Source: Planctomycetes bacterium HGW-Planctomycetes-1 (GTDB lineage Bacteria > Planctomycetota > Phycisphaerae > Sedimentisphaerales > UBA12454). From it: a stretch of 58,675 nucleotides of DNA. A model generated the notes under the pieces. That model made no database searches, was not told the DNA's origin, and was given only the letters and a program-made list of their open reading frames with translations. The stretch is taken from assembly GCA_002839495.1 (NCBI GenBank), contig PGYD01000003.1, positions 1 through 58,675 on the forward strand, read 5' to 3'. Every line of letters begins with the position of its first letter. The first letter of the stretch is position 1. Position numbers and translations under genes: made by a program. Of the stretch, positions 13,685 through 55,874 are shown in pieces.

Positions 13685-13691
13685 CCGGTAA

Positions 13692-14219: not shown

Positions 14220-14237
14220 AATTAGACCGGCTGTATT

Positions 14238-17405: not shown

Positions 17406-17419
17406 TTTCAGGATAATCT

Positions 17420-18442: not shown

Positions 18443-18446
18443 AAAA

Positions 18447-37604: not shown

Positions 37605-40073
37605 CTAATTCGATTTAAAGATTGAAACTTTGATTTTTCCGGCTGGATTAATCGAAACGGCTACCGCACCGTCCCTGCTGGTAAAATAATTATGGTCGAA
37701 ATCGCGGATTCGAGGACTTGTCCTGCCAGATTGACTGTATGAAGAGCTTGTTATCAGAAATTCCGGCTTGAAATAATCCAAAAAGGCGGGGTCGATAGTC
37801 CTTGCCGAGCCGTGATGAGGAACAACCATTATATTAGTATCAAGGTCGGGATAGAGTTCCATAAGGCGGTTCTGAATATTTTTTGGAATGTCGGAACAAA
37901 ACAGTATTTTCCTGCTGGCATATTCGAGCAAAAACACAAGAGAAGATTCATTGTCCGACAAATCTTCAGATACATCTTTCGGCCAGAGCTGCGTAATGAC
38001 GACCTTATTTAACGAAAATTTTTCAGGCGAGATTTTAAGTGAAAGATTTTGCGATTTTAGAAACTCGATAAGTATCGAAGCGGCATTCGAATTATTACGG
38101 ATAAATTGCGGATTTGTATAAATATTTTTGCATTTATATCTGCTTAAGATTTCAGGCAGGCCGTTGTAATGGTCGATATCGTCGTGGCTTATGAAGGCCG
38201 AGTCGATTTTGCCGGCGGCGGTATAAGCGAGAAAAGGATTTACTATTCTGCCGCCGATATCGCTTTTCGAGATTGAGCCTGCATCGAAGATTAGATTTTT
38301 ATTGTCCGGCGTTTTGACGCAGATTGCCTGGCCATGCCCGACAGATAATACGGTTAGCCGCAGATTATTTAAGTTTTTAAAGTATCTGACGGATAAAGCG
38401 GAGATGAGCATCAGTATAATTGCCGCAGGATAAATATAATTTTTGCGAAGCGGGAAAAACTTCCACAAAAAAATCAGTAGGTAAAAGAGCAGGACAATAT
38501 AAATAGCAGGCTTGCCGATTATTATTTGCGAAAACGGAACTTTGGCAAACAGAATAACTAAAAGTGAAAGTATGTCGGCGCATAAATCGAGCAGAATTCC
38601 TAAAAAGGCGGCAACGCTCGGCAGCAAAGAAGCAAAAATAATTTTGAGCGGGCCGAGAATTACAATTGCTGTTACCGGAAAGGAAGCCGGAACTGTCCAA
38701 AGTGCTGTAAATAACTGAAATTGATAAAAATGCCAGGCGATTATAGGGGCGACGGCAAGCCAGGCGGCAAGACCTACGGCAAAAATATCAAGCGGCAGTC
38801 GAATAGGCGAATAAAAAGAAGTTTGTTTCAACGGCTCAATAGGCAATAAAAGAATTCTCCTGATAGGCTCATTAAACAGCAGTATGCCGAGCGTTGCCGC
38901 GAAGGACAGTTGGAAGCCGGGACTTAAAAAATCCATCGGCCTTATGAGCAAAAGCAGGATTGCCGAAATAGCCAGACCGTTTAACGCCATCGAACGGCGA
39001 TTGAATAATCGACCCAGACATAACACTGTGAACATTATGCCAGCGCGGAGTGTCGGCGAGGCGGGCGGGACGATGAGAAGAAAAATAATTATCGCTGAAA
39101 TAGCGGTAATCGAACGGCCCCGATGCAAAAGACCGCTTCTTTTGGCAAGCCACCACGCAAAGGCGGCAAAAATGCCGACATGCAGGCCGGAAAGGCAAAC
39201 AAGATGCACAAGTCCGGTCTTCATAAAAGCATTATAAAGGTTTTTGTCGATTTTAGAACGGCTGCCTAATACGAGGGCTTCAACAAGACGGCTATTATTA
39301 TCTTCATCGGCATCGCTGAGCGAAGCAACGGCAAGCTGACGCAGTTTTGCTCTTATGCTGAAAGGTTTTTGCATTGGTTCGGCATTTAATACCGTTATAG
39401 CGGCGGCGGATTTGACAGAAGCCGACAGGTAAACGCCGTTGCGGTGCATATAACGGGCGATATCGAATTGGCCGGGGTTGTCAGGAGGAGAAAATCCTTT
39501 TAATCTGCAAAAGGCCTGAAACTCATTGCCGAGTTTCAGATGGCCGGCGTCTTCGGAAATATAAAATTTTATTTTACCTGCTGCCGGCCTCCAGCCTTCG
39601 ACAGTTTTTACATCGGAAACCTTTGCGTAAAAATGGGTATAAGGATACGAACGGGAAAACTTCGAAAAGAGCCAATCGCCTTGTCTGACGACGAGCGGTT
39701 CGATAATGATTTTGGCCCGGATATGCGCGAAAGTAATATCCTGTATCGGGATTTTGCGGATATCGTTCGGAGTGGGTAGATTTCTGTTTATCAATCTGAA
39801 TGAGCCGAGGCAGATAAAGCATAACGAAACGGAAATAAAGATAAGATACTGATTTCGGATTAAAAACCTGTGAGACAAAAACAAGACCAGAGAGAAAATT
39901 AAAACGATGAACCAGATAACCGCCGGAAAGTTGAAATAAAACTGTGTAACAAGACCGACAGTTAATCCGACAGCGGGCAAAACGGCAGGGCAGGATAGCA
40001 AAATCTCCTTTAAAGGGGATTGAGATTCAAGAGTTCGTTTAAACTCCTCGATTTTTTGCTGTATTTCATCCAT
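37605..40073 (-). CDS. comEC: DNA uptake channel ComEC/Rec2
   Basis: NPGQFD, GLVHLVCLSGLH, GFQLSF, VGHGQ, SHDDIDH, PHHGS. Confidence 0.93.
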   Translation of the reverse strand: MDEIQQKIEEFKRTLESQSPLKEILLSCPAVLPAVGLTVGLVTQFYFNFPAVIWFIVLIFSLVLFLSHRFLIRNQYLIFISVSLCFICLGSFRLINRNLPTPNDIRKIPIQDITFAHIRAKIIIEPLVVRQGDWLFSKFSRSYPYTHFYAKVSDVKTVEGWRPAAGKIKFYISEDAGHLKLGNEFQAFCRLKGFSPPDNPGQFDIARYMHRNGVYLSASVKSAAAITVLNAEPMQKPFSIRAKLRQLAVASLSDADEDNNSRLVEALVLGSRSKIDKNLYNAFMKTGLVHLVCLSGLHVGIFAAFAWWLAKRSGLLHRGRSITAISAIIIFLLIVPPASPTLRAGIMFTVLCLGRLFNRRSMALNGLAISAILLLLIRPMDFLSPGFQLSFAATLGILLFNEPIRRILLLPIEPLKQTSFYSPIRLPLDIFAVGLAAWLAVAPIIAWHFYQFQLFTALWTVPASFPVTAIVILGPLKIIFASLLPSVAAFLGILLDLCADILSLLVILFAKVPFSQIIIGKPAIYIVLLFYLLIFLWKFFPLRKNYIYPAAIILMLISALSVRYFKNLNNLRLTVLSVGHGQAICVKTPDNKNLIFDAGSISKSDIGGRIVNPFLAYTAAGKIDSAFISHDDIDHYNGLPEILSRYKCKNIYTNPQFIRNNSNAASILIEFLKSQNLSLKISPEKFSLNKVVITQLWPKDVSEDLSDNESSLVFLLEYASRKILFCSDIPKNIQNRLMELYPDLDTNIMVVPHHGSARTIDPAFLDYFKPEFLITSSSYSQSGRTSPRIRDFDHNYFTSRDGAVAVSINPAGKIKVSIFKSN

Positions 40074-40112
40074 TAAGGAGATAAGCCCTCAGCAAATCAG
40101 GGGATTAAAAAT

Positions 40113-41384
40113 TTATTTGGCGATTTTTTCCATACCGTTCATATACGGCCTGAGAACTTCCGGTATATTTATTGAGCCGTCGGCGTTCTGGTTAAGTTCG
40201 AGAACCGGTATCAGGATTCTCGGCGAAGCGATAACGGTATTATTCAGTGTATGGCAGAAGAAATTTTTCTTCTGTTTATTGTCCTTATAGCGAAGGTTCA
40301 ATCGCCTCGACTGGAAGTCATAGAATTTACTTGCGCTGTGCGTTTCGCCGTAACTTTTGCGAGACGGCATCCAGGCTTCGATATCGTATTTTTTGGCCTG
40401 ACCTCTGCCGAGGTCGCCTGTGCAGACTTTTACCACACGGTAAGGAATGCCGATTGCCTGCATCACGCCTTCTGAGTTGGCCCTGATTTCTTCGTGATAT
40501 TTTGCGCTTTCTGCGGGGTCGTTTTCACAAATGACAACCTGCTCGACTTTGTCGAACTGATGGATTCGATAAAGGCCGTAAGTGTCCTTGCCCGCGGCGC
40601 CGGCTTCTCTTCTATAACAAGTACTGAGACCGACGAATTTTTTCGGAAGTTTTTCCTGCGGCAGAATTTCACCTGTGTAATAGGCGGTAAGCGGAACTTC
40701 AGCGGTGCCTGCGAGATTTAATTCATCCCGTTCCATCCTGTAGGTCTGCTCTTCTGCGCCGGGATAGTAGCCTGTGCCGGCCATCGCCTCGTTTTTCATC
40801 AGCATCGGCACTGAAAAAGGCACATAGCCTTTTTTAATCATAAAATCCATCGCAAATCGAAGGATTGCCCAATGCAGAACCGCGCCTGTACCTTTTAGAA
40901 AATAATTTCTCGTTCCCGCCAGCCTTACAGCCCTTTCAATATCTATTATGTCAAGAGCCGTACCGAGATGGATATGGTCTTTGGGCTCGAAATCGAATTT
41001 CCGGATTTCGCCCCATTTTGCAATCTCAATATTTTCCGTGTCATCCTTACCGAAAGGCACATCATCGTCGGCAGGCTGAGGCACGGCAAGCATAAGCTCG
41101 TCGAATTCCGGCTGGAGATTTTTAATCTGCTCGGCGAGGGCGGCTTCCTCATTTTTGTATTCAGCGAGCTTGTTGATAAGTTTCTGTTTTTCGTCGCCGG
41201 CGAGTTTCGGAATGGATTTGCCGACGGTGTTCTTTTCAGTTGTTATTTCCTGCAGACGGGTTTTTACCTTTCGCAAATCATTGTCAAGCCCAAGCAGGCG
41301 GTCGATATCGACATAAAAATTCTTCGCTTTGCAGGCTGTTTTAAACGGCTCAGGATTATCGCGAATAAGTTTTATATCAATCAT
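40113..41384 (-). CDS. serS: serine--tRNA ligase
   Basis: GTAEVP, CYRREAG, GLYRIHQFDKVEQ, YDIEAW, HTLNNT. Confidence 0.97.
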   Translation of the reverse strand: MIDIKLIRDNPEPFKTACKAKNFYVDIDRLLGLDNDLRKVKTRLQEITTEKNTVGKSIPKLAGDEKQKLINKLAEYKNEEAALAEQIKNLQPEFDELMLAVPQPADDDVPFGKDDTENIEIAKWGEIRKFDFEPKDHIHLGTALDIIDIERAVRLAGTRNYFLKGTGAVLHWAILRFAMDFMIKKGYVPFSVPMLMKNEAMAGTGYYPGAEEQTYRMERDELNLAGTAEVPLTAYYTGEILPQEKLPKKFVGLSTCYRREAGAAGKDTYGLYRIHQFDKVEQVVICENDPAESAKYHEEIRANSEGVMQAIGIPYRVVKVCTGDLGRGQAKKYDIEAWMPSRKSYGETHSASKFYDFQSRRLNLRYKDNKQKKNFFCHTLNNTVIASPRILIPVLELNQNADGSINIPEVLRPYMNGMEKIAK

Positions 41385-41391
41385 AGTTTAG

Positions 41392-41497
41392 ACAGAAATA
41401 AGGATGTAAGGACATAAAGATGTAAGGATACAACAGCCAACAAATCGGCTATGATAGTTTTCCTTACTTCCTTGCATCTTTGTTTCCTTACTTCTTT
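41392..41497. repeat. inverted pair of 5x imperfect octamer arrays
   Basis: acagaaat aaggatgt aaggacat aaagatgt aaggatat ... ttttcctt acttcctt gcatcttt gtttcctt acttcttt. Confidence 0.8.
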
Positions 41498-41519
41498 TTT
41501 TATTCGTATTCATTCGTGG

Positions 41520-42839
41520 TTAATTTTTATATCGCTTTATTATAACAACATTATTCTGACCGCCAAAGCCAAAAGATTCCTTCAATACGATATTAACCTC
41601 TGCTTTTCGCGGCTTGTTCGGCACATAATCCAAATCGAGATTTGGGTCCGGGTCGTTAAGATTTGCCGTCGGCGGCAGCACATTATCACGAATCGCGAGG
41701 ATACAGGTAATCATCTCTGCCACACCGGCTGCGCCGATTAAATGCCCCATCATACTTTTGACACTGCTGACGGGGGTATTCTTCGCTTCTTCCTTAAAAA
41801 CCTTTTTTATGGCCAGAGTCTCAATCGAATCGTTCTCGGAAGTGCTTGTGCCGTGTGTACTTACATAATCTATATCCTTATAGGATACTTTTGCGTCTTT
41901 CAGGGCCGCTTCCAACGCCGCGACGGCTCCGCGGGCATCTTCGTGCATATCGGTTACACGAAAAGCGTCGCTGCTGCTGCCGTAGCCGAGAACCTCGGCG
42001 AGAATTTCAACGCCTCGTTTCTTTGCCGATTCGAGCGTTTCGAGTATGACGATTGCCGCTCCTTCGCCGATGACAAATCCGTCTCTGCTTGCGGTGAACG
42101 GACGCGAAGCGGTTTCGATACTATCGTTTCTGGTCGATAGGGCGGTCAGGCGGTTAAAGCCCATAACGCCCAAAGGATGAATCATCGAATGCGCGCCGCC
42201 GGCGAGCATTACATCGGCTTGGCCGGACTGCAAAATCTTAAATGCTTCGCCGATTGCCTGGGTGCTTGCCGCACAAGCCGTAAGGCAGCTTCTAATCACC
42301 CCGCGAGCGCCGGTCAGCATCGAGACGTGAGCGGCAGGCATATTCGGTTCCTGCTCAAGCTCGCGATAAGGCTGCATTTTGCCGAAGGCAACGGCTGCCC
42401 ATTTGTTCCAGTCCATCGTTCCGGCAGCGTCGTCCCAGCCCTGGACAATAGCGTTAAAGAAATTCTCGTTATCGACAGAGCCTTCGCCGGCGCCCAGATA
42501 TATGCCGATTCTTCTGCGGTCAATGCCGTCTTTGGGATTTTCTGTTTCTACATCTATTTTTGCCTGTTTGCAGGCCTGGGATGCCGCTCCGACAACGAAT
42601 TTACTGTGGCGGTTGCCATCTTTGTGCAGGTCGGGGTTCTTTGTGAATTTTGTAATGTCGTAATTTTTGACCTCGCAGCAGAATTTTGTCGGATATGTCG
42701 AGGCGTCGAAAATCGTGGTCTTATTCATACCGCTGCGGCAGTTGAGAATATTGTCCCACATTGTCGGAATATCGTTGCCGAGCGGACAAACGATGCCCAT
42801 TCCTGTTATCACAACACGATTTTTTGTTTTCTCATTCAT
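41520..42839 (-). CDS. fabF: beta-ketoacyl-ACP synthase (FabF-like, catalytic Cys-His-His intact)
   Basis: TACAAS, STHGTST, KSMMGHLIGAAG, SFGFGG. Confidence 0.9.
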   Translation of the reverse strand: MNEKTKNRVVITGMGIVCPLGNDIPTMWDNILNCRSGMNKTTIFDASTYPTKFCCEVKNYDITKFTKNPDLHKDGNRHSKFVVGAASQACKQAKIDVETENPKDGIDRRRIGIYLGAGEGSVDNENFFNAIVQGWDDAAGTMDWNKWAAVAFGKMQPYRELEQEPNMPAAHVSMLTGARGVIRSCLTACAASTQAIGEAFKILQSGQADVMLAGGAHSMIHPLGVMGFNRLTALSTRNDSIETASRPFTASRDGFVIGEGAAIVILETLESAKKRGVEILAEVLGYGSSSDAFRVTDMHEDARGAVAALEAALKDAKVSYKDIDYVSTHGTSTSENDSIETLAIKKVFKEEAKNTPVSSVKSMMGHLIGAAGVAEMITCILAIRDNVLPPTANLNDPDPNLDLDYVPNKPRKAEVNIVLKESFGFGGQNNVVIIKRYKN

Positions 42840-44145
42840 ATTTTTTCAGAATAATCGCGGCAGTCTGGCCGCCGTAAGTATAACTTGTGCAAAGAACATA
42901 ATTGTTCTTTTTCTTAATCTGTTCTTTGGCGATATTTAATTTGCAATCTTTATTGATGTTTTCGCAATTTTTAGCCGCCGGAATAATTCCGTCTTTAATC
43001 GCACAGCAGGCGGCGATAATATCGACCGCACCAGCCGCTGCTCCAGTGTTACTCGTCATACTCTTTGTCGGAAATACAGGTATCGAATCGGTTGCATTAC
43101 CGAGAGCCTGCCTGATTCCCTTTGCCTCGGCTGTATCGTCGGCTAAAATGCCAGTTCCGTGCGGAATAATCAAATCGAGCTGCTGGGGTTTTATCCCCGC
43201 ATCTGCAAGGGCGGCTTCGATTGCGTATTGAACGCCTTTGCCGTCCGGCTCGAGAGATTCATATTTTGCGTTTATACTGCAGCTTTGACCCAAACCTGCG
43301 ATTTGAGCGTAGATTTTCGCGTTGCGTTTTTTCGCGTTTTCTGGATTTTCAAGGATTACATTCGCCGCCGCTTCGCCGAAAACCGAACCTTTCGCGTCTG
43401 CATCGAAAGGCCGACAGGCCTTTTCGGGTTTATCGTTATAGTCCGCAGTTGCGCGATTGAGAAGACACTGCCTCAAATGTACGATAGCGTTTACTTTTGC
43501 TTCACCGCCGCCTGCAAGGGCGAGGTTCGCATCGCCGCGAGCGATTATCTGGGCGGCTTCGGCGATTGCCAAAAGCCCCGCGGACTCGGCACAGGTAATC
43601 GTATTGCTCATCCCCTGTATGTCGTGAATGATGCCGATGTGGCAGGCGAGCATATTGGGCAAATATTTAAGCAGCCACAGAGGCGTAACCGCTTCAATGC
43701 TGTATGTGCCCCATTTTTTTATATCGAATTTTCCGTCCGTGATGCCTTTCGCGACCGCAGGAGCAAGCTCGACAAGGTCGCAGCTTATAAGCCCTGCGCC
43801 GAGAATAATTGCCGTTCTTTCCGGATTGATATTTATATTCTGCTCATCGAAAGCCTTGGTTATTAGTCCTGCATCCTTGAATGCCTCGTTAGCGGCGATA
43901 ACGGCAAGCTCGATATCTCGCGACATCAGCTTTGTAGTTTTGCGAATCGCTTTGGGAACGTGGTCGCGGATACTAAATTCCGGCGCCTGACCTGCAATCT
44001 GACAGGTAAAACCCGCCGGGTCAAAAGCGGTAATTCTGCCTATTCCGCATTTACCCTGGCAAAGACCAGACCATAAATCCTGATAGCTTAAGCCGAGCGG
44101 AGTAACCGCTCCCAATCCTGTTATTACCGGCTTATGAGAGGTCAT
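42832..44145 (-). CDS. non-catalytic ketosynthase paralogue (chain-length-factor-like)
   Basis: KS fold (VITGLG, CRPFD, HGTG) but Glu at the catalytic Cys position (TCAESAG) and Asn at the second His (KSMTSNTG). Confidence 0.8.
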   Translation of the reverse strand: MTSHKPVITGLGAVTPLGLSYQDLWSGLCQGKCGIGRITAFDPAGFTCQIAGQAPEFSIRDHVPKAIRKTTKLMSRDIELAVIAANEAFKDAGLITKAFDEQNININPERTAIILGAGLISCDLVELAPAVAKGITDGKFDIKKWGTYSIEAVTPLWLLKYLPNMLACHIGIIHDIQGMSNTITCAESAGLLAIAEAAQIIARGDANLALAGGGEAKVNAIVHLRQCLLNRATADYNDKPEKACRPFDADAKGSVFGEAAANVILENPENAKKRNAKIYAQIAGLGQSCSINAKYESLEPDGKGVQYAIEAALADAGIKPQQLDLIIPHGTGILADDTAEAKGIRQALGNATDSIPVFPTKSMTSNTGAAAGAVDIIAACCAIKDGIIPAAKNCENINKDCKLNIAKEQIKKKNNYVLCTSYTYGGQTAAIILKKYE

Positions 44146-44633
44146 TTATCGCTCCCAAAGGCAGGTGCAGCAATGCCTGACGCCCTTAAGACAACGCCGA
44201 ACAGGTCGGTAAATACGAAGTTTTCTTTTGGAAATTGTTTGCCCGCGAGATTTTGGTCGATGTGGCTGAACATCAAATCAATTTCAGCGATTGTTTCGTC
44301 GCCGCAGGTGATTTTGCCTGTTGTCGAGGCGGCCTCGTCGGCAATCGATTCGATTTTGGCGTGAATTTTTATCGTATCTCCCGGCCGGACGTAGTTGAAA
44401 AACACAGCCTTATTGATTTTCGCAAGGATTACCTTTTCTTTGAACTGCCGCGCTTCGCCGACAAGAATGCCCGCAGTTTGCGCCATCGACTCAATCATCA
44501 GACATTCCGGCATAATCGGAAAGCCGGGAAAATTATCGTGCAGATACTCCTCAGCCATAGTTACATTCTTTATGGCGACGGCATTTGAGCCGCTGTTGAA
44601 CTCAATGAATTTATCTATCCAAATCCAACGCAA
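44142..44633 (-). CDS. FabZ-like dehydratase subunit (Glu kept, His->Asn)
   Basis: IKNVT..E, DNFPGFPIMPECLMIESMAQ, VRPGD. Confidence 0.85.
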   Translation of the reverse strand: MRWIWIDKFIEFNSGSNAVAIKNVTMAEEYLHDNFPGFPIMPECLMIESMAQTAGILVGEARQFKEKVILAKINKAVFFNYVRPGDTIKIHAKIESIADEAASTTGKITCGDETIAEIDLMFSHIDQNLAGKQFPKENFVFTDLFGVVLRASGIAAPAFGSDK

Positions 44634-44689
44634 ATTTATTACCTACAGTGTTAATCCGTGTCTAATAAAGAACCGCATTAATCCGCGTC

Positions 44690-45088
44690 TTAAGCGGCCG
44701 CATTAAGTTTGCCGTCAACGAAATTAACAAGTGCATCGACGGTAAACAAATCACCGATTTTATTGACGCTCGGGTCTTCGATAAATGCTGAAAGGTCGCT
44801 GTGCGGCATACGCTTCTTCAGCTCGTCCAGGCCCTTTTGGGTGAGCTTGCCGTTGCTGACGTATTCGGCAGTGCTTAAAAGGCTTTCAGCAGGAAAGAGC
44901 TCTTCTCTTGGTATTTTTATTCCGAACGCTTTTTCCATACGAAAAACGATATCGAGAAAATCGATGCTTTCAGCGCCGAGGTCCGCCATCAAAGTGGCGT
45001 CCGGCTTAACTTCTTCTTCATCAACTCCGAGAGCATCGACAAGTACGTCCTGAATTTCCTTTAAAATCTCATCCCGCGTCATAGCCAT
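44690..45088 (-). CDS. extended acyl carrier protein (132 aa)
   Basis: DLGAESIDFLDIVFRMEKAFGIKIP phosphopantetheine motif, with a long insert before the final TVxxLVxFV helix. Confidence 0.88.
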   Translation of the reverse strand: MAMTRDEILKEIQDVLVDALGVDEEEVKPDATLMADLGAESIDFLDIVFRMEKAFGIKIPREELFPAESLLSTAEYVSNGKLTQKGLDELKKRMPHSDLSAFIEDPSVNKIGDLFTVDALVNFVDGKLNAAA

Positions 45089-45131
45089 AACTTAAATCTC
45101 CGATAATAAAACATTAATCCTTTAATTACAT

Positions 45132-45180
45132 TGTCATTTCGAGCGAAGTCCCGATTTATCGGGACGAAGTCGAGAAATCT
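45132..45180. repeat. REP-like palindrome with nested mini-palindrome
   Basis: TGTCATTTCGAGCGAA-GTCCCGAT-TT-ATCGGGAC-GAAGTCGAGAAATCT. Confidence 0.7.
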
Positions 45181-45241
45181 TTTGAGAACTCCGTGCCGAA
45201 GGCACTCCAAAAATTTTCAATTTTCAATCTTCAATATTAAA

Positions 45242-45724
45242 TTATGCAGCTCCGCTTCCGGCTGCTAATAATTTGTATCTTTCTTTTAATTTATTTATAA
45301 CATAGGCATCTTCGACAGCGAGTTTCGAATCTTTCTCGGCAAGGTTAAAATGTCTCAAACTGAACCTTGCCTCGACGATAGGTTCTCCGTTGCAGGTGCC
45401 TGTTCCCGAAAACGAACTTATATTTTCTTCTATATCCTTTGCCGTAACGGTGTACTGAATAGTCGCACCGGGAGCGGCAAAGCTTTTGTATTTTACATTT
45501 TTTGCCTGCCCAAGCAACACCATACTATGGGCAAAATTTTCGCTGTCCCTGACGAGCCAGCAGGCCGATTCGACCAACCCCTGCAGCAGAAAAACGCCCG
45601 GAAGTACCGGAAAAACGGGGAAATGGTCCCCCAGATATTCCTCAGAAAGGGATACATTCTTGATAGAGGTTATCTTTTTACCGGGCACTATTTTAACTAT
45701 TTTATCAATCAGTATGAACTTCAT
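45242..45724 (-). CDS. FabZ-like dehydratase subunit (His kept, Glu->Gln)
   Basis: FILIDKI, KNVSLSEEYLGDHFPVFPVLPGVFLLQGLVE. Confidence 0.85.
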   Translation of the reverse strand: MKFILIDKIVKIVPGKKITSIKNVSLSEEYLGDHFPVFPVLPGVFLLQGLVESACWLVRDSENFAHSMVLLGQAKNVKYKSFAAPGATIQYTVTAKDIEENISSFSGTGTCNGEPIVEARFSLRHFNLAEKDSKLAVEDAYVINKLKERYKLLAAGSGAA

Positions 45725-45883
45725 AAGTGTTGGTCATTTTAGTGATTTAATTCCCTTTTACCAGCTTTTTTTAAAATTATAAGGGGGGCATTCCTATCGC
45801 AATTAGAGAGCCTATTTAAACTTTCAAAGGCAATTCGATTTTCTACAGTTTGTTTTATCTACTGCTATTTGTTATCTTTTTTC

Positions 45884-45912
45884 TTGACTTTGAAAGAACT
45901 CATTGCGATAAT
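45884..45912 (+). promoter_or_regulatory. sigma70-like promoter of the secreted-protein islet
   Basis: TTGACT-N17-GATAAT. Confidence 0.55.
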
Positions 45913-45989
45913 CAGCAAGGACAAAAACACAGTGGAGAAAATCAAGAGATAATTTATTTGGAGAGAACTTGCGCTGTGAGAGGAATACA

Positions 45990-46703
45990 ATGGAGCATAA
46001 AATTTTTCCGGTCGTTTTTGTTTTTCTAACCATCACAGCAATCTCATCGGCTCAGTATGATTATCCCGATTTGGCGGGCGACGCCGATATAATCAATTTC
46101 GCCGATTTCGCCGTCTTTGCCGAAAACTGGCAGAAGTCAGGCACCGGATTAGCGGGCGATTTCGACGACAGCGGCAAAGTCGATTTTAACGATTTAGCCT
46201 ATCTTTCCTATTACTGGCTTACCGCACAATGGGAATGCAGGAAAATCGACCTCGATTACAGCGGCCTGATTGATTTTTCCGATTTTGTAATTTTCGCCGA
46301 CTGCTGGCTCAGCAGTGACGGTAGTCCGAACTATAAGACAAATTGCGATTTTGACGACGATGATATAGTTGATATTTACGATTTAAAGGCCTTTTGCAAT
46401 TGCTGGCTCAAAGGCACAAGACCGCAGGGTATCTGGGAACAGTTCAAGGCTGCACTGGCGGCAGGCGATATAGACCGAGCCGTCAGTTTCTTTGCTGTTT
46501 TCGTGGCGGACGATTATAGAGACATATTTAATGAACACAGCGATAAATTGCAGAGTTTAGCGGCCGATATGGGCCAATTAACTCTTGAATACAGGGATAG
46601 AGATATTGCCGTTTATGAGTTAAGCAACGCCGCAGGCAATCTCTTCTTTCCGGTCGTTTTTACTATGGACGACGAAAGCAAATGGAAAATCGCGGTCTTC
46701 TAA
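45990..46703 (+). CDS. secreted protein with four dockerin/EF-hand-like repeats and an NTF2-like C-terminal domain
   Basis: Signal peptide; Asp-rich repeats ending in FADFAVFAENW / FNDLAYLSYYW / FSDFVIFADCW / YDLKAFCNCW; C-terminus WEQFKAALAAGDIDRAVSFF...WKIAVF. Start at 45990 after GAGGA. Confidence 0.7.
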   Translation: MEHKIFPVVFVFLTITAISSAQYDYPDLAGDADIINFADFAVFAENWQKSGTGLAGDFDDSGKVDFNDLAYLSYYWLTAQWECRKIDLDYSGLIDFSDFVIFADCWLSSDGSPNYKTNCDFDDDDIVDIYDLKAFCNCWLKGTRPQGIWEQFKAALAAGDIDRAVSFFAVFVADDYRDIFNEHSDKLQSLAADMGQLTLEYRDRDIAVYELSNAAGNLFFPVVFTMDDESKWKIAVF

Positions 46704-46734
46704 CAGCCGGGCAAAAAATTCTGGAGAAAAACCT

Positions 46735-47052
46735 ATGACTGAAAAAACAAGAAAAGTGTTATTTGTTACGGGTGAAATTTTTGTTTTATGTGTCGCTACA
46801 GGTTTATTGATATTTAAATTCAATTTGTTGCTGCAACCAATTTTTAATTTGATATTTTTACTCCCCCTCGATGGAATCCCTATATTAACCAGTGTTGTAG
46901 TGCTAGTATTCGATATCATTTGGCTTGTATTAATGAAATTGTGGCCGCTAAAAAATATATATATCAAGTTGTTTTTAACGTATTTGGTACTTTTTTTATC
47001 AGGATGTGTTTTATTTGCTGTGATTATATTACCCAACCTTATGGTTCCCTAG
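46735..47052 (+). CDS. small AT-rich membrane protein (~3 TM helices)
   Basis: GGAG SD; hydrophobic throughout. Confidence 0.65.
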   Translation: MTEKTRKVLFVTGEIFVLCVATGLLIFKFNLLLQPIFNLIFLLPLDGIPILTSVVVLVFDIIWLVLMKLWPLKNIYIKLFLTYLVLFLSGCVLFAVIILPNLMVP

Positions 47053-47089
47053 CGAGATTAAAAAATGTTTTATGTTTCTGGAGTATAAT

Positions 47090-49121
47090 ATGCGTATAAA
47101 AAATTCAATAATAATTTTCTCTTTATTTTTTGGATTATGCAGTAGCTTGTATGCCTTTGAAAACAAATATACCCATCCGGCATTAACCCAGAGAGCCATC
47201 GGAGACTCTGTGTGTGTTTTAGATGATTATCTAAAAACTCAACTGGGGATGACCGGAGGGCTGACAGCCGAATTATATTGGGATTTTCCTGCATCGATAA
47301 AGGCAAGAATGGACAAAGCCGAGCCGGACAAAACTACCAGAAGTATATCGGATTGGCTCAAAGCAGGCAGTATAATTGAGGATGAGCGCAAAATAGATTT
47401 AAGGTTTAATAATCACTTTTATGACCCAACCAGAAATAGCGGATTAGATAACACAGAAGCAAAGTATTGGTTGAGTGGCCGATTTAAAGGTGCATCCGCT
47501 AAGGATTGGGCAATAGATTATAGTTTAAATGAATTCGATTGGCAGGCAGCAAGAGAAGATTTCTATTTTGCCCTCACAAAGCCAACTCAATCCGAGCGTG
47601 ACGCATCGTTGGCGCAATCTATGCTGAATTTAGGCAGTGTTCTGCATCTTCTTGAAGATATGGGCGTTCCTGCCCATGCAAGAAACGATTCACTTTTCGC
47701 TCATGTTAGATCGTTGGTATTCGAAGAAGATAGAGTTGAACCGCTTGAAAGATGGATTGAAAAGAAGATTTCGAGCGACGGCTCATTGGCAAGATGGATT
47801 TCGCCGAGCTGGACTCCTACGCCACAAATTTATTCTAAAGTTTCGAGTTATTTCGATGCTGAGGAATACACCGGCAATTATCTCGGCGATGGCGTACCAA
47901 CTCCCGGCAACTGGGGGCTGGCGGAAAAGACTAATTATCAGTTTTTGTCATGGACAACGATTTTCAACGAAGATTTTTTGACCAGCCGGTATTATTTCCC
48001 TCATCCGGCAAAGATACATACTATCGATGTGAACGAATCGGGGCGCATTTATTTATCCGGCTATGGCGTGAACCATTTAGCCAGAAAAACAATGTCGTTT
48101 CATCGCTTGCAGCACGACCATTTGGATAAAGCGTGGTGTGTGCTCGGAATCGTTGTTTTTGATGATTATGCGGCGATAACTTTGCCTCGGACGATTAACT
48201 ATGCTGCCGGGCTGGTTAATTAATTTCTTCCGCGGCAGATTAAGCGTTGAGGCCGAGTGTATAGAATGTGATGTCTTTGAGCTTACTATTACCAATAAGT
48301 CGGACAATTCAGGGTTTCCGCAAACCTTAAAAGGCGGCGATTTTGAGTTGTACTGGGAAGATGCGGCGGGCAATAGGGCAGAAGTGCCGGATTTCGGTAT
48401 CGACAGCGGCTGGACGTCAAGCAGTACTTTAGTTTACGATGGAACTGTAACGGCGACATTTATTAAGCCGACGGCAGGAGAGCCAGTTAAGTATATTTTG
48501 GTTTATAGGGGCAATATTTGTGAGAATCCGAACCAGCCGGATGCTGACGATGAAAATGCCATAGCCGTAACCGTCTTTACCCCTCCATCGGACAATTGCT
48601 GTGGTGTTTGTTCTTATTGTGGTGCAGACCCGACTCCAAGCCCTATAAGAATATCAAGTTTGGGCATAACAGGAAACGATTTAACTTGTTGTTATAGTTG
48701 GACTGTTTCAGGGTACAAATATACGACAGTATTCGAGATGCTATATCCTTTGCACTTGCCATTTGAAATATATATACCTTATGGCTATTATTATGGAGGA
48801 TATTGCAGATGGGAGAAAGTTTTTGCCGCCCAAATACGTTGTACAATATATCGCGGCAACGACTATCCAGAATGTGATGGAACTGGCGCAATAAGTTCAT
48901 CTGTCAATTACTACGATTTACTTTTTCAAATTAGGAGGTATAGTTCTTATGTTGCAGTATCAATAAGGTCTTTGCAGAGCTTTGATTTGGATTTTTTTTG
49001 GACAGGCTATGGCGCAATACCGGAAAGCGGCTGTGTCTATGGGGATTATTATGGCTATACTGCCAAAGGTTGTGGCTTTGCGGGATGGCAATGGGGTGGA
49101 GGTTTGATACATATTGATTGA
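47090..49121 (+). pseudogene. secreted Zn-dependent phospholipase C / S1-P1-like protein split by a +1 frameshift at 48221-48223
   Basis: Signal peptide, mature FENKYTH, then NHFYDP and LHLLEDMGVPAH. Deleting one A in AAT TAA TTT gives ...YAAGLVNYFFRGRL and fuses ORFs 47072-48223 and 48201-49121 into 676 aa. Confidence 0.7.
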
Positions 49122-49248
49122 TATAAATGCCTTGTACTAAAATAATAAAACCTGAAATGACAAAATATTTAGATTGCAAAATGCCAAGAGTGAGTATACA
49201 ATTTTGGACATAATGGTTATAAGTATTGAATTTAATCGGTTTTTGATA

Positions 49249-49857
49249 ATGAGGAAAAAACAAAAAATACAAGGCCTGACAATCGTTGAGATTTTGGTCG
49301 CTATTGCAATCGTAGCACTGCTGGCGGCAGGACTGTATTCTGTCAGCAGCTATGTTGGTAGGCAGGCAAAAATAAAACTCACCGAATCGACAATCGCAAT
49401 CCTCACCGCCGCCATCGACGAATATCATGACTTCTACGGCAAATTCCCTTTTGAAGCCGATGAAAGTTACAATAAGTCAAACCTTGAGTCAGGTGTTAAT
49501 GGCGTTAACGGGACTGTCAGGGCATTCGTTAATGATGTTGACCAAGGTACCGCTGGCAGCCATAAAGACGAATATTCATCAATTGAAGCGTTGTATTATT
49601 TTTTGAATCGCGCTCCGGATGCCAAAAAAATTGTCGGCTCTATAAATTCTTCATTATTTACCAATAAAAGCGAAAATAAGAGCGAGGAATTTCGAGTTAT
49701 TATCGGTTCGACACAGTATCCTTTGGTAAGAATCGTTGATGCCTGGGGTATGGCGTTAAGGTATACCTACGCGACAGGCAACAATTTTCCCGCGATTACT
49801 TCCGCCGGCCCCGATAAGGATTTTACTAAGACCGATGATAATATCACCAGCCGTTAG
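49249..49857 (+). CDS. type II secretion / type IV pilin-like pseudopilin (GspG-like)
   Basis: Prepilin site QG|LTIVEILVAIAI, DAWG, SAGPD. TTGCAA-N17-TACAAT at 49174-49202 supports the later start. Confidence 0.85.
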   Translation: MRKKQKIQGLTIVEILVAIAIVALLAAGLYSVSSYVGRQAKIKLTESTIAILTAAIDEYHDFYGKFPFEADESYNKSNLESGVNGVNGTVRAFVNDVDQGTAGSHKDEYSSIEALYYFLNRAPDAKKIVGSINSSLFTNKSENKSEEFRVIIGSTQYPLVRIVDAWGMALRYTYATGNNFPAITSAGPDKDFTKTDDNITSR

Positions 49858-51630: not shown

Positions 51631-53676
51631 ATGATACAGACAGAGTACAAAAAGGCGGCGAATGTTTCTCTGGCAGCTCTTATATTAAGCGTTATATTCT
51701 TTCCGGCCTGTTTTATTCTGAGCAAAGTTACGGGAGTTTATGCGTTGTTTGCCCTGAGCTGGCAAGTACTCGGGGCGGTCCTGATATGGGCGGTTCTGGC
51801 AATCCAGTTTTATCAGAAAGCACTGGCGGAGCAGGAAAGACTTGACCTGGCACAGCTTGCCCAAAGCAGCGGCAGCGATACCATCTTTGAAGCGCAAAAG
51901 ACAAGTTCGGAACTTTTCGCGGTCGCTCAAAACAGGTTAAGAATCTTCGAGAAATGGTTTCTCCCGATTTTTTCGGTTTTTATTGCTGTATATCAGCTCG
52001 CTATCGGGTCGCATCTTTTAAGATTAACCATCAGAGGCGATATATATGACAGGGAAATGAGATTCTTGCTGCTCGGAGCGGTTCTTGCATCGGCAATAGC
52101 ATTTGTCAGCTTTCTGTTTTCGCTTTACGCTACCGGGCTGGCGAGCCAGGAAAAATGGCGGCCATTGAAAGCAGGCGGAAGCTATTTTCTGGCGACTGCG
52201 ATTTTCGCTTTTGTCTGTGCGGCGGGAATGGCATTTGCGCAGTTTAAGGTACAGATAGTTCTTACTGTGCTTAACTGGGCGGTGCCGACTGTTATTATTC
52301 TTGTCGGATGTGAAACGGCGTTAAACTTTATATTCGACATATATAGACCCAGAGTAAAGGGACAATACAGCAGTACCGCTTTTGACAGCAGGCTTTTGGG
52401 GATTATCGCCGCACCGCATAATATCCTTAAAACGGTCGCAAGCGTTATAGACTACCAGTTCGGCTTTAAGGTCTCTCAAACGTGGTTCTACAAAATAGTC
52501 GAACAGGCGGTAGTGCCTTTGGTCCTTGTTTCGGCGGTCATTCTTTATCTTTTAAGTTGTATTGTGATTGTCGAACCTGATTCAGAGGCGATAATCGAAA
52601 GGTTCGGTTCGCCGACAGATTCGCAGGGTAATGTGCGGCTCGTCGAAGCGGGAATAAGTTTTAAGCTGCCATGGCCTTTCGGAATAGCGAGAGAATTTCC
52701 GGCAAAACAGATTCAGGAAATATCTGTCGGATATATCCCGCTCGAAGACGAGACAAAACAAAGACAGCCGCTGTTATGGAACAGGGAGCATTATAAGGAA
52801 GAATATAACCTTTTGACCGCGACGGAGAGCATAAGCTCGCAGGAAGAAGGCGCTGTTCCGGTAAGTATTATAAGGGGCGCCATTCCCGTGCAGTACAGGG
52901 TCGTTGACCTTTACAAATATCTTTACAATCACGCCGACAGCAGGGAAGTCCTTACAGCGATTTGTTATCGTGAGGTGGTCAAATTCGTAGCCAGTGCGAG
53001 AATTGAGCCTGAATCCGAAACCGACAGCACCGAAGAGAGTCTGCTCGGGGCCGGCAGGGCAAGGGCCGCTTTGGAGGTCGCCAGGAATATTCAGCAGCGG
53101 GCCGACGAGATCGGACTTGGTGTTGAGATAGTATTTATGGGATTCGAGGGTTTTCATCCGCCTCCGCAGGTTGCCGAGGATTTTCAGGCTGTAACAGGGG
53201 CCGTACAGAAAAAACAGGCCGCGATACTTGAAGCAATCGCGATGCGAGACAGAATTTTTACCGGAAATGTCGGCTCTGTGAAACAGGCTGAATCGCTGCA
53301 CGAACTGGCAGGCAGATATCTGCAGTCGCAGCAAAAAGGCAAAGAGCACGAAGAGTTAAAACTGCAGCTTGATAAGGCGTTTACGGAGGCAAGCGGTGAG
53401 CTTTTCGCCAAACTTAGAGAGGCGCAGGCCTATGCTTATGAAAAATCGACGCTCGCAAAGGCCGCCGGCGAGAGGTTCAGCCAGCAATTACAGGCATATC
53501 GGGCGTCTCCAAGGATTTATAAGCATGAGCTTAAAATGAATATGCTCGAAGAGACGCTGGAGAAAATAAGAAAATACGTCATTATTTCGGACGGCGATTC
53601 GGAAGTAACAATTATAGATTTGCAGGAAAAACTCACGCCGAGTCTTTATGACATCGAGCCGGTACAGGGGCAATAA
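51631..53676 (+). CDS. HflK-like SPFH protein with N-terminal multi-TM domain
   Basis: Multi-TM N-terminal half, then ERFG, FKLPWPF, VQYRV, HPPPQVAEDF and a coiled-coil tail. Confidence 0.8.
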   Translation: MIQTEYKKAANVSLAALILSVIFFPACFILSKVTGVYALFALSWQVLGAVLIWAVLAIQFYQKALAEQERLDLAQLAQSSGSDTIFEAQKTSSELFAVAQNRLRIFEKWFLPIFSVFIAVYQLAIGSHLLRLTIRGDIYDREMRFLLLGAVLASAIAFVSFLFSLYATGLASQEKWRPLKAGGSYFLATAIFAFVCAAGMAFAQFKVQIVLTVLNWAVPTVIILVGCETALNFIFDIYRPRVKGQYSSTAFDSRLLGIIAAPHNILKTVASVIDYQFGFKVSQTWFYKIVEQAVVPLVLVSAVILYLLSCIVIVEPDSEAIIERFGSPTDSQGNVRLVEAGISFKLPWPFGIAREFPAKQIQEISVGYIPLEDETKQRQPLLWNREHYKEEYNLLTATESISSQEEGAVPVSIIRGAIPVQYRVVDLYKYLYNHADSREVLTAICYREVVKFVASARIEPESETDSTEESLLGAGRARAALEVARNIQQRADEIGLGVEIVFMGFEGFHPPPQVAEDFQAVTGAVQKKQAAILEAIAMRDRIFTGNVGSVKQAESLHELAGRYLQSQQKGKEHEELKLQLDKAFTEASGELFAKLREAQAYAYEKSTLAKAAGERFSQQLQAYRASPRIYKHELKMNMLEETLEKIRKYVIISDGDSEVTIIDLQEKLTPSLYDIEPVQGQ

Positions 53677-53718
53677 TAAAGTTATAGAATAGCTGATAAA
53701 ATTTAAGGGTAAGCAAAA

Positions 53719-54609
53719 ATGAAGAATTTTGCGGTAATGTTTTTGGTGATATTAATCGTCGCGGTGATGGCACTCTATCTCGTATCGTTTCAGGTGCGGC
53801 AGACGGAAACTGCTCTGATTCTTACTTTCGGCAAGCCTACACGTTCGATAATCGAACCGGGCTGGAAATGGAAATGGCCTGCCCCGATTCAGACGCTGAT
53901 TAAATATGACTCGAGACAGATGCTTTTTGAGGGCGTTGAGGAAGAAACGGTTACAAAGGGCGGAGAACCGATAATTGTCCAGACGTATATCGTATGGCGA
54001 ATCGACGAGCCGATAAAATTTCGTGAAGCCGTTAGAGATGTGCAGGGAGCCGAAAGACTGCTCAAAGGCAGGCTTCGCGACGTGCAGAATCAAGTTATCG
54101 GCCAGCATTATTTCAGCGAATTTGTGAACACGGACAGAGAGCAGATAAAATTCGGCGAAATTGAAAAAGAAATGGAGCGGCTGCTCGACGAGCCTGTAAA
54201 AGAAGCGTACGGCGTAAAAGTGGAAACAGTCGGAATAAAAATGCTCAAGGTGAGCGAAAAAGTAACGGAAGATGTTTTTGCTCGAATGAGGGCTGACAGG
54301 AGACGCAAGGCCGAGGCGACATTGGCGCAGGGCAGCGCAGAGGCGACCAAGATAAGGAGCGACGCCGATTCGAAAATTACCGAGCTTATGGCGGCGACCG
54401 AAGCAAGGGCGAAAGCCATCCGCGGCTCGGGCGATGCCGAGGCGGCTCAATATTACAAAATGCTCGAGGCCGACCCTGAATTTGCGATGTTCCTGCGTGA
54501 AATAGAGACCCTCAAAAAAACCCTTAAGGAAAGAACGACCGTGGTTTTGCCTGCCGATGCCGAACCGTTTAAATTGCTTAAGGAAATGCCTAAAATCGAG
54601 CCTAAATAA
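53719..54609 (+). CDS. hflC: HflC-like SPFH protein
   Basis: FGKP..EPG..KWP.PIQ, WRI, VFARMRADR, RGSGDAEAA, DPEFAMFLR. Confidence 0.85.
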   Translation: MKNFAVMFLVILIVAVMALYLVSFQVRQTETALILTFGKPTRSIIEPGWKWKWPAPIQTLIKYDSRQMLFEGVEEETVTKGGEPIIVQTYIVWRIDEPIKFREAVRDVQGAERLLKGRLRDVQNQVIGQHYFSEFVNTDREQIKFGEIEKEMERLLDEPVKEAYGVKVETVGIKMLKVSEKVTEDVFARMRADRRRKAEATLAQGSAEATKIRSDADSKITELMAATEARAKAIRGSGDAEAAQYYKMLEADPEFAMFLREIETLKKTLKERTTVVLPADAEPFKLLKEMPKIEPK

Positions 54610-54626
54610 AGGAATTAGAATATCAA

Positions 54627-55874
54627 ATGAGTAACGAACATAACAATAACCATCATCATATAGCCGGTGAAACGAACGAGCCGTTGGATTTCGGCAGCGA
54701 ATTCGATGCCGGTACCAAGAGCCTTGCCGATGCCCTGAGAATCAGCTTCGCGGTACTGAAGATTATAATGGTTGTACTGGTTATACTGTTTTTCAGCTCC
54801 GGAGTCTTTACAGTCGCGCCTGACGAACGGGCGATGGTGCTTCGGTTCGGGAAAATCCGCGGAGAAACGACGGAGCAGAGAATACTCGGCCCGGGACTGC
54901 ACTGGGCGATACCGTATCCTATTGAAGAGGTCGTAAAACTGCCTGCCAGAAATACCATTCTGCGAACAGCGATAGATTCGTTCTGGTATGACGAGAAGAA
55001 TACATATCCGTCACGTTCGCTGGATCCGATACTCGAAGGATACTCCATAACCCGCAACGATACTATTGCTGATTTGAAAGAGGGAGACAGCGATTATAAT
55101 ATTGTGCATTCGAGATGGCTTTTGACGTATAGAATTTCCGATTGTGAAATGTTTTATAAAAACGTTTCTGTCAAAACGCCCGATGCGGGGCAGACTTTGA
55201 TTGATGTAATACCGAAAAGTGTCGAGCCGTTTTTAAAGGCGGTTGCTTCGGAAGCCATTGTCATAACTATGGTAAATTTCAGCATCGATGAAGCGATAAA
55301 AAGTGATTCGAGGATAAGCAAAGAAGCTGAAAAACTTCTGCAGCAGAAACTTGACGCTATGAACTGTGGAATAGAGGTCGATTCGATGCAGCTAACCGCC
55401 GTTATATGGCCAAAGCAGCTTAACGATTCGTTTGTTGCGTCTATAAAGGCCAGCAACGAAGCCGACAGAATGATACGCGAAACGAGAGGCTACACCGAGA
55501 GCAGAATCAACGAGGCCGGCGGCAGAGCACTTATTAACGCAATTCTTTCGCCGGAAATTGAAGACGAGCAAAAGGAATATTACTGGAACAACGCTTCGGG
55601 AACGGTGCAGCAGATAATCGCCGAGTCAAAGGCGTATAGGACGAAAGTTGTCGAATCGGCCAAAGCCAACGCCGATTATCTGCAAAAGCTGCTGCCGGAA
55701 TACCGGAAAAGACCGAAACTGGTTCTGCAGAGAATCTATCAGGACGCTATCGAAGAAGTCCTGAGCAATACGCAGGAAACGATAATAGCCCAGCCGAGCA
55801 GCGGCGCTAAGAACCGTGAATTCAGAGTTATGATAAACAGGGACCCTGCGGCGGTTAAGAAAAAACAGCAATAG
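54627..55874 (+). CDS. HflK-like SPFH protein with His/Asn-rich N-terminus
   Basis: MSNEHNNNHHH, VLRFGK, PGLHWAIPYPI, DYNIVH, EYRKRP. Confidence 0.8.
   Translation: MSNEHNNNHHHIAGETNEPLDFGSEFDAGTKSLADALRISFAVLKIIMVVLVILFFSSGVFTVAPDERAMVLRFGKIRGETTEQRILGPGLHWAIPYPIEEVVKLPARNTILRTAIDSFWYDEKNTYPSRSLDPILEGYSITRNDTIADLKEGDSDYNIVHSRWLLTYRISDCEMFYKNVSVKTPDAGQTLIDVIPKSVEPFLKAVASEAIVITMVNFSIDEAIKSDSRISKEAEKLLQQKLDAMNCGIEVDSMQLTAVIWPKQLNDSFVASIKASNEADRMIRETRGYTESRINEAGGRALINAILSPEIEDEQKEYYWNNASGTVQQIIAESKAYRTKVVESAKANADYLQKLLPEYRKRPKLVLQRIYQDAIEEVLSNTQETIIAQPSSGAKNREFRVMINRDPAAVKKKQQ

Follow-up and report, generated by a model that had tools for sequence, protein, structure and literature searches.

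The window analysed here is a stretch of 58,675 nucleotides from Planctomycetes bacterium HGW-Planctomycetes-1 (Phycisphaerae, Sedimentisphaerales; GenBank assembly GCA_002839495.1, contig PGYD01000003.1, positions 1 to 58,675), and it carries at 41520-45724 a compact five-gene module with the look of a type II fatty acid synthase (FAS) or polyketide synthase (PKS). All five genes lie on the minus strand. The first, at 45242-45724, encodes DH1, a FabZ-like hot-dog dehydratase subunit of 160 aa (Pfam FabA-like, 53.7 bits, 2.1e-14), and is followed by the gene for an insert-bearing acyl carrier protein (ACP) of 132 aa at 44690-45088 (Pfam PP-binding, 51.6 bits, 1.1e-13). DH2, a second FabZ-like dehydratase subunit (163 aa, Pfam FabA-like, 54.8 bits, 9.9e-15), is read from a TTG start at 44142-44633. 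The last two genes encode FabF-type proteins: a ketosynthase (KS) with a dead active site at 42832-44145 (437 aa, Pfam ketoacyl-synt N/C 2.3e-33/4.7e-22), resembling the chain-length factor (CLF) partner of a PKS and called the dead KS below, and an intact KS at 41520-42839 (439 aa, Pfam ketoacyl-synt N/C 2.9e-39/6.1e-37). Open reading frame coordinates and Pfam matches agree exactly with the five co-oriented genes in the order DH-ACP-DH-CLF-KS that had been proposed from the letters alone (hereafter the sequence-only reading), and Pfam annotation of the neighbours likewise shows none of the ketoreductase, enoyl reductase, acyltransferase or tailoring genes which that reading had noted as missing from the cluster. 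The DH2 stop overlaps the dead-KS ATG by 4 nt, as ATGA, and the dead-KS stop overlaps the KS ATG by 8 nt; because of these two overlaps, DH2, the dead KS and the KS appear to be translationally coupled. The gaps between DH1 and ACP and between ACP and DH2 measure 153 nt and 56 nt, respectively.

The source genome (a 1.83-Mb assembly, 94% complete, with the window as contig C33) has a second and canonical set of fatty-acid genes. Judged by the NCBIfam equivalog cut-offs (fabZ 113, fabF 493.75, ACP 70.45; canonical AcpP 106), all five module proteins fall short: DH1 and DH2 score 81.6 and 92.0 bits against fabZ, the dead KS and the KS 305 and 460.4 bits against fabF, and the ACP 54.7 bits against the ACP model, while it also stays below the cut-off of every other NCBIfam ACP model. 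Only the KS passes a looser subfamily model, PRK07314 (446.9 > 387). This bears out the sequence-only reading that every component deviates from housekeeping FAS. Elsewhere in the genome, on contigs C85, C102 and C146, we found a FabF of 595.6 bits adjoining an AcpP of 112 bits, fabH (417.6 bits) and fabD (327.6 bits) with a FabG-like short-chain dehydrogenase/reductase (SDR) beside them, and a housekeeping FabZ fused to LpxC (contig C146, L011:31-1200; bifunctional lpxC/fabZ model, 347 bits) and followed by lpxA. The genome also encodes an NMO/FabK-like gene (170.5 bits). Since a second, canonical fabF/fabZ/acpP set is present in the same genome, the module is extra and not housekeeping, and the objection that it might hold the genome's only fabF, fabZ and acpP genes falls away. 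A role of the module in replacing FabH for initiation was likewise rejected as a necessity, the genome encoding a full-score fabH. Through its fusion to LpxC and the lpxA that follows, the sole full-score FabZ of the genome is itself bound up with lipid A synthesis. Contig C11 holds a third FabZ-like gene that stands alone (L012:1499-1972, 157 aa); it keeps the catalytic His and Glu and scores 89.5 bits, below the fabZ cut-off, and no lipid gene is linked to it on that short contig.

The ACP is the hallmark of the module. Its phosphopantetheine site is Ser41 in the motif ESID, a Ser that is kept in 71 of 71 sequences, and it carries a conserved insert of ~45 residues (~residues 66-115) between helix III and helix IV. 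An alignment of 44 orthologues gave a mean column identity of 69%, with the motifs PREELFP, GK.T..G, MPH.D and LFTV conserved inside the insert. In the AlphaFold2 model (predicted local distance difference test, pLDDT, 85), helices I-III are followed by short helices and a hairpin (~66-115), with the extra helices at 67-114, and then by helix IV, and Foldseek searches with this model retrieved only ordinary ACPs of 75-80 aa, covering the core. The extra length is thus predicted to be an insert before the last helix and not a tail, because the model places it ahead of helix IV and Foldseek matches the core only. In the Protein Atlas, the three matches listed for the ACP, from a total of 30, were clusters of 128-130-aa ACPs with Planctomycetota as the commonest phylum; the dead KS matched generic KS clusters only.

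FabZ active sites lie between subunits, with the catalytic His coming from one subunit and the catalytic Glu from its partner. Alignments showed that DH1 has His34 and carries Gln48 at the position of the catalytic Glu, and that DH2 carries Asn34 at the position of the catalytic His and has Glu48, such that a complete FabZ interface site is found only in a heterodimer, from DH1 His34 and DH2 Glu48, the reciprocal pair being Asn/Gln here. DH1 further bears a C-terminal tail of ~35 aa after the hot-dog fold, and the N-terminus of DH2, MRWIWIDKF, is conserved. Among the orthologues, the His of DH1 is invariant (67/67) and its Glu position reads Glu in 58 and Gln in 9; the Glu of DH2 is invariant (77/77), and its His position is occupied by H in 61, L in 12, N in 3 and K in 1. 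Read locus by locus (n=65), the DH1/DH2 patterns were HE/HE in 47, HE/LE in 10, HQ/HE in 7 and HQ/NE in 1; the window, also HQ/NE, comes in addition. The two half-dehydratases of the sequence-only reading therefore hold for the source genome and fail as a general state, most orthologues keeping His and Glu in both subunits; the half-enzyme state is a derived one in this lineage (the window, L013 and L014).

What is general is the direction of the losses. FastTree trees of the two subunits require at least 6 + 3 changes at the decaying site (DH1-Glu/DH2-His) and 0 + 0 at the kept site (DH1-His/DH2-Glu). All losses hit one and the same composite site, as a DH1:DH2 heterodimer with a single required site would predict and two independent homodimers would not, and this asymmetric decay argues for such a heterodimer. 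A complex prediction for DH1 with DH2 returned a score of 0.92, compared with 0.00 for the best of three unrelated controls; in calibration, 116 of 157 solved complexes and 2 of 215 mismatched pairs attained that mark. The runs agreed in at least 98% of contacts, partner pLDDT was at least 85, and the predicted interface holds residues 34 and 47-48 of both chains together with both C-terminal tails.

The two ketosynthases differ in their catalytic residues. Aligned to solved FabF and read out by column, the KS keeps Cys189-His329-Lys361-His366, a C-H-K-H set that recurs in 65 of 65 orthologues. In the dead KS, the nucleophile Cys is replaced by Glu187 and the second His by Asn366, with the first His and the Lys unchanged; its 79 orthologues show Glu at the nucleophile position in 61 cases, Asp in 17 and Ala in 1, where PKS chain-length factors have a Gln. 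The paired active and inactive KS described by the sequence-only reading is therefore confirmed at residue level, and, as in type II PKSs, an active KS is encoded beside a paralogue without the nucleophile Cys. From the 8-nt gene overlap and the conservation of the dead partner we infer a KS:dead-KS heterodimer.

The origin of the pair was addressed with a KS tree of 56 rows (quick IQ-TREE search; support from the Shimodaira-Hasegawa-like approximate likelihood ratio test only; the composition of the window's dead KS was flagged), in which rhizobial, aryl polyene (APE) and ishigamide sequences are not represented. It recovered a canonical FabF clade (99), a module KS clade (96) and a dead-KS clade (97), the latter two as sisters at 94, and KS and dead KS are rooted within FabF-like sequences of the phylum. 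Because the two clades are sisters and the FabF2-like and FabFmut-like clades of putative anammox genomes stand elsewhere, a FabF-like gene seems to have been duplicated within this lineage to give the pair. Two relatives depart from the usual state. In G083, a divergent module version with Cys-His-Lys-His in both KS partners (L124:8071-12132) may represent a pre-degenerate state of the heterodimer. In G344, a large planctomycete genome, a second dead-KS paralogue (Glu-His-Lys-Asn) follows directly after a canonical FabF (L127:7252-10215), which itself lies downstream of plsX and fabD; the module's own dead KS is dispersed there, and additional.

To follow the module across genomes, a word-indexed search was made with the dead KS, returning 6549 proteins among 8000 candidates. 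The best 120 matches are 67-94% identical, so that the dead KS is as conserved as an enzyme, and those with names belong to Phycisphaerae, Sedimentisphaerales and unclassified Planctomycetes metagenome-assembled genomes; more distant representatives of the family are 40-47% identical. A pattern scan with one genome per species yielded at least 600 stretches, 598 of them confirmed, and the best 80 loci were analysed, all from records of Planctomycetota lineages. In 60 of these 80, the five genes share one strand and follow the order DH1-ACP-DH2-dead KS-KS, so the synteny that the sequence-only reading had asked to see across Planctomycetota is present, and the arrangement is not a chance one, the same genes recurring in the same order. 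Among the remaining 20 loci, a contig end truncates the module in 11, and in 9 some of its parts lie elsewhere. No further gene family is conserved beside the module across the 80 loci. In the 51 loci with at least 2.5 kb after the KS, serS follows the module in 27.

Counts across the phylum were made in 401 sampled Planctomycetota genomes with the insert-bearing ACP as marker, because E-values of dead-KS searches fail to separate dead-KS from KS orthologues. The insert-ACP was found in 63 of the 401 genomes, once per genome. Within the window's class it is present in 24 of 24 (the source genome, 8/8 others of its order and 15/15 from the rest of the class), and outside the class in 39 of 377, concentrated in a few families such as f10 (20/20). 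In some class members the ACP and the dead KS lie on different contigs or far apart, and in one large genome the dead KS is separated from a DH1-ACP-DH2-KS group, from which it follows that the five-gene unit survives dispersal. The module has also been retained in the 1.83-Mb source genome. In the relative G120, a FabG-like SDR is embedded between DH1 and ACP, and another relative has one upstream, which makes plausible the earlier proposal that FabD and FabG are borrowed in trans; no enoyl reductase was found in any version of the cluster examined.

With parts and distribution in hand, the module can be set against known systems, among them highly reducing type II PKSs. A KS with a dead partner and a two-protein dehydratase are given as the signature of aryl polyene and ishigamide systems in the available text of two reports (PMC8358021, PMC8041823). 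The module shares with ApeO:ApeC and ApeI:ApeP, and with Iga11:Iga12, a putative KS/CLF heterodimer, a putatively heteromeric hot-dog dehydratase and a stand-alone ACP. This resemblance, and the lack of an enoyl reductase in every cluster version, could be taken to mean that the module is itself a highly reducing type II PKS making a polyene-type acyl chain. Among solved chains, however, the best matches of both KS proteins are FabF and not a PKS KS or CLF: for the KS, FabF reaches 348.7 bits, the actinorhodin KS 266.7 and 6kxd_A 191.4; for the dead KS, FabF reaches 211 bits, the actinorhodin KS 145.8 and the actinorhodin CLF 121.8. The entry 6kxe, from the same set as 6kxd, is named as the ishigamide-cluster ketosynthase in the available part of a preprint (bioRxiv 10.64898/2026.05.19.726425). 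Unlike in those PKSs, moreover, the nucleophile position of the module's dead partner is Glu/Asp. APE clusters carry as accessory genes a second ACP, a KR, an initiating KS, a methyltransferase, an exporter, a LolA-like protein and acyl- and glycosyltransferases, and none of these families is present in the module's flanks here or conserved beside the module in the 80 loci. Presence throughout a class of mostly uncultured bacteria and retention in a 1.83-Mb genome also fit a core lipid better than a pigment. We therefore set aside the aryl-polyene analogy of the sequence-only reading, and a polyene product seems highly unlikely.

The second analogy of that reading, with ladderane synthesis, concerns a gene cluster of the same phylum. 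Anammox Cluster I follows the same logic of a KS and dead-KS heterodimer, FabF2/FabFmut, and is restricted to anammox bacteria, with radical-SAM and phytoene-desaturase-like genes adjacent, according to the portion of the preprint by Granatino et al. that was available (bioRxiv 10.64898/2026.05.19.726425). Both systems combine a FabF-derived KS beside its dead paralogue with a dedicated ACP and a FabZ variant, and leave the other FAS steps to genes outside the cluster, and the five best solved matches of DH2 are amxFabZ entries (53.0-60.5 bits, against 52.3 for the next FabZ; identities from Dietl et al., PMC10139942). The differences are nevertheless extensive. Cluster I has one homo-hexameric FabZ, whereas two complementary FabZ-like subunits are encoded here; its gene order, read from a putative anammox genome, is DH-KS-mut, as opposed to DH2-dead KS-KS; its dead partner reads Val/Phe-Asn-Lys-Glu in place of Glu-His-Lys-Asn; the ~45-aa ACP insert was not detected in anammox loci at E 1e-3; and radical-SAM or phytoene-desaturase-like neighbours are absent here.

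Distribution and phylogeny bear on the same comparison. The insert-ACP was found in 0 of 21 genomes of families f39 and f91, putatively anammox by their hydrazine-synthase-like frames of ~810-845 aa (single or double) and FabF2/FabFmut-like pairs; HZS_alpha (PF18582), which matches 71 of the 401 genomes, is unspecific as an anammox marker. In the free KS tree, the FabF2-like and FabFmut-like clades stand apart from the sister pair of module KS and dead KS. An approximately unbiased (AU) test did not reject a single clade of dead KS and amxFabFmut (p 0.32), so that the free tree does no more than favour an independent origin of the two pairs. The phylogeny suggested by the sequence-only reading, which was to include Ape and polyene sequences, was run against anammox sequences only and yielded separate clades without excluding a joined one. 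Taken as a direct orthologue of amxACP, amxFabZ and amxFabF2/amxFabFmut, and thus as related to ladderane-type chemistry, the module would share its phylum, its heterodimer logic and its closest solved dehydratases with Cluster I, and the AU result would permit the kinship; the free tree, the reversed gene order, the two dehydratases, the undetected insert-ACP, the differently replaced triad and the missing radical-SAM and desaturase neighbours speak against it, and we give this identification next to no credence. The ladderane analogy is accordingly not upheld.

A third system lies outside the phylum. In rhizobia, the genes acpXL-fabZXL-fabF2XL-fabF1XL-adhA2XL-lpxXL make the very-long-chain fatty acid of lipid A and borrow FabG, FabI and FabD (PMC11901934, as far as its available text goes). 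On that partial account the parts list matches, a FabZ and a pair of neighbouring FabF paralogues joining a private ACP in a compact set, with reductases and FabD borrowed and a product that goes to an envelope lipid and not to bulk phospholipid, as we propose for the module. The source genome does make lipid A (lpxC/fabZ and lpxA), and the window itself holds at 12707-16388 KpsF-like (SIS+CBS) and KdsC-like haloacid dehalogenase (HAD) genes for synthesis of 3-deoxy-D-manno-octulosonic acid (Kdo), followed by a 716-aa protein without a Pfam family. A supply of very-long-chain or long 3-hydroxy fatty acids for lipid A is on these grounds conceivable. The module differs from the rhizobial set, which as described has one dehydratase, in having two, in its insert-ACP, in its phylum and in lacking a linked acyltransferase or dehydrogenase, a comparison of gene content and not of sequences; no lpxXL-type acyltransferase or adh gene is conserved beside it in the 80 loci, nor is a gene of the lpxXL or adhA2XL type linked to it in the window. 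Against NF005079, which we take to be the AcpXL model, the ACP scores 51.2 bits, below the cut-off of 83. On balance, we consider a lipid A supply line improbable.

Unsaturated fatty acids offer another destination. An oxygen-independent branch, with the DH pair serving as dehydratase/isomerase and the cis-3 intermediate extended by the KS pair, would resemble FabA/FabB, or FabN/FabO of Enterococcus, and several anaerobic routes to unsaturated fatty acids are built from pairs of extra FabZ and FabF paralogues, just as the module is. A genome-wide search of the source genome found no fatty-acid desaturase and no FabA/FabB-type genes, only FabZ-like matches and one canonical FabF, leaving room for such a branch. 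The known branches use the housekeeping ACP, though, and a private, conserved insert-ACP has no role in them; the module is also undetected in 338 of the 401 sampled Planctomycetota. An unsaturated-fatty-acid branch appears unlikely on this evidence.

Dedicated type II elongation sets with a dead KS partner are thus already known, and the module, as the sequence-only reading had expected, matches none of the characterised pathways that could be tested and stands outside every characterised family tested. Built on its observed parts, residues, conservation and distribution, and on the observed asymmetric decay of one dehydratase site, the interpretation that we hold with moderate confidence is that the module is probably an elongation unit with a private ACP, feeding a conserved envelope lipid. 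The insert-bearing ACP would carry the growing chain. The active KS would work as a heterodimer with its dead, CLF-like sister, which bears Glu/Asp for the nucleophile Cys, and the FabZ-type DH1:DH2 heterodimer would dehydrate the 3-hydroxyacyl intermediate, with only the DH1-His/DH2-Glu site needed. Malonyl loading, keto-reduction and enoyl-reduction would be performed by the housekeeping FabD, FabG-like SDR and FabK-like enzymes encoded elsewhere. The private ACP would keep this acyl pool apart from bulk phospholipid synthesis, and the chain would be destined for a conserved envelope lipid.

A clue to that lipid comes from the genes downstream of the KS in some relatives. OlsI, OlsH and OlsG form a GH3-dependent ornithine-lipid route encoded by an operon of Singulisphaera acidiphila (PMC12493201, in its available text); ACP, ketoacyl synthase and dehydratase genes have 0 occurrences in that text. 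Among the 51 loci with sufficient downstream sequence, an alpha/beta-hydrolase lies directly after the KS in 6; 4 of these 6 also have a GH3 ligase and 2 of these a methyltransferase. In G120, GH3 is annotated directly after the KS; in G097, G046 and G209, coordinates alone put it ~1.1-1.3 kb away from the KS pair (~0.1-1.3 kb counting G120). The alpha/beta-hydrolase, GH3 and methyltransferase Pfam families beside the KS in these relatives are those of the OlsH/OlsG/OlsI operon, an orthology judged by Pfam family only; unlike that operon, the window holds no such genes, and the source genome has no GH3. Where OlsI/OlsH/OlsG-like genes lie downstream, as in some relatives, the chain probably goes into an ornithine-type aminolipid that they make.

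Several observations weigh against the interpretation as an envelope-lipid elongation unit and are best considered together. Both catalytic residues are kept in both dehydratases at 47 of the 65 loci where both were read, so the half-enzyme state is lineage-specific; similarly, relative G083 keeps Cys-His-Lys-His in both KS partners, and the dead state is not universal. The score of the predicted DH1:DH2 complex may reflect likeness to the FabZ dimer and not a preference for the heterodimer, which it cannot tell from a homodimer because FabZ dimers have been solved and the controls were unrelated proteins only. Scans of 40000-46200 for promoters (12 sites, 8.6 +/- 3.1 expected) and for terminators (13 sites, 9.5 +/- 2.9 expected) stayed at chance. 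Throughout the class, the module lacks a conserved acyltransferase or thioesterase neighbour, and the source genome, at 94% completeness, yielded neither GH3 nor an OlsB/OlsF-type domain. GH3 occurs in 34 of the 63 module genomes and in 99 of the 338 module-less ones, counts which are descriptive as the genomes are related. Heterodimer formation, the use of enzymes in trans and the lipid destination are all steps that we infer, and the destination is the weakest of them. GH3 as an obligatory partner was rejected, being absent from the source genome and from 8 of the 9 genomes of its order, the source genome counted (7 of the 8 others). The aminolipid link is at best facultative, because GH3 is present also in the 99 module-less genomes and absent from the source genome.

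A more specific proposal is a tentative one, which we rate as possible and would not call probable. The insert-ACP pool, built by an asymmetric KS/dead-KS pair together with a one-site dehydratase heterodimer, would be an undescribed lipid line native to the phylum. The anammox ladderane cluster may, on this view, have evolved from the same ancestral design. The pool would provide a conserved envelope lipid of planctomycetes with its acyl, perhaps 3-hydroxyacyl, chain, with ornithine-type aminolipids as the product where OlsI/OlsH/OlsG-like genes follow and another acceptor in Sedimentisphaerales-like genomes.

Downstream of the module lie serS and comEC, and the scan showed no evident terminator between the KS and serS. 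Upstream and divergent from the module, 45969-49857 encodes a dockerin-like protein of 244 aa, two proteins without a Pfam family (383 and 306 aa) and a prepilin-like protein with an N-methylation motif, which may form a pseudopilin or surface set. Farther away, EtfB, EtfA and a 602-aa acyl-CoA dehydrogenase are encoded in series at 16494-20255 and make up a Bcd/Etf-like set, here in a genome of small size; a HAD hydrolase and a divergent TetR regulator come next. Three SPFH/Band-7 proteins in series (681, 296 and 415 aa) precede a P-type ATPase at 51631-55874.

A search of open-access papers and bioRxiv found no description of the module outside anammox bacteria. The string 'planctomycet' does not occur in the text available from the Granatino preprint (bioRxiv 10.64898/2026.05.19.726425), and Rattray 2009, in the part available, records five fabB/F paralogues in Rhodopirellula and notes nothing further on them. 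For the FabF2/FabFmut heterodimer of the putative ladderane cluster, the module offers a comparison from outside anammox bacteria.

The envelopes and lipids of Planctomycetota are unusual, and most genes responsible for these lipids are without assignment. Here, a compact five-gene unit is found in every sampled member of one class and has been kept in a genome of 1.83 Mb. It brings its own handles: an ACP whose acyl cargo mass spectrometry can read, a dehydratase pair whose working active site is marked out by its own evolution, and a dead KS with a conserved acidic residue where PKS chain-length factors have Gln. Where both gene sets share one cluster, the module may explain the source of the fatty acid in the GH3-dependent ornithine-lipid route.

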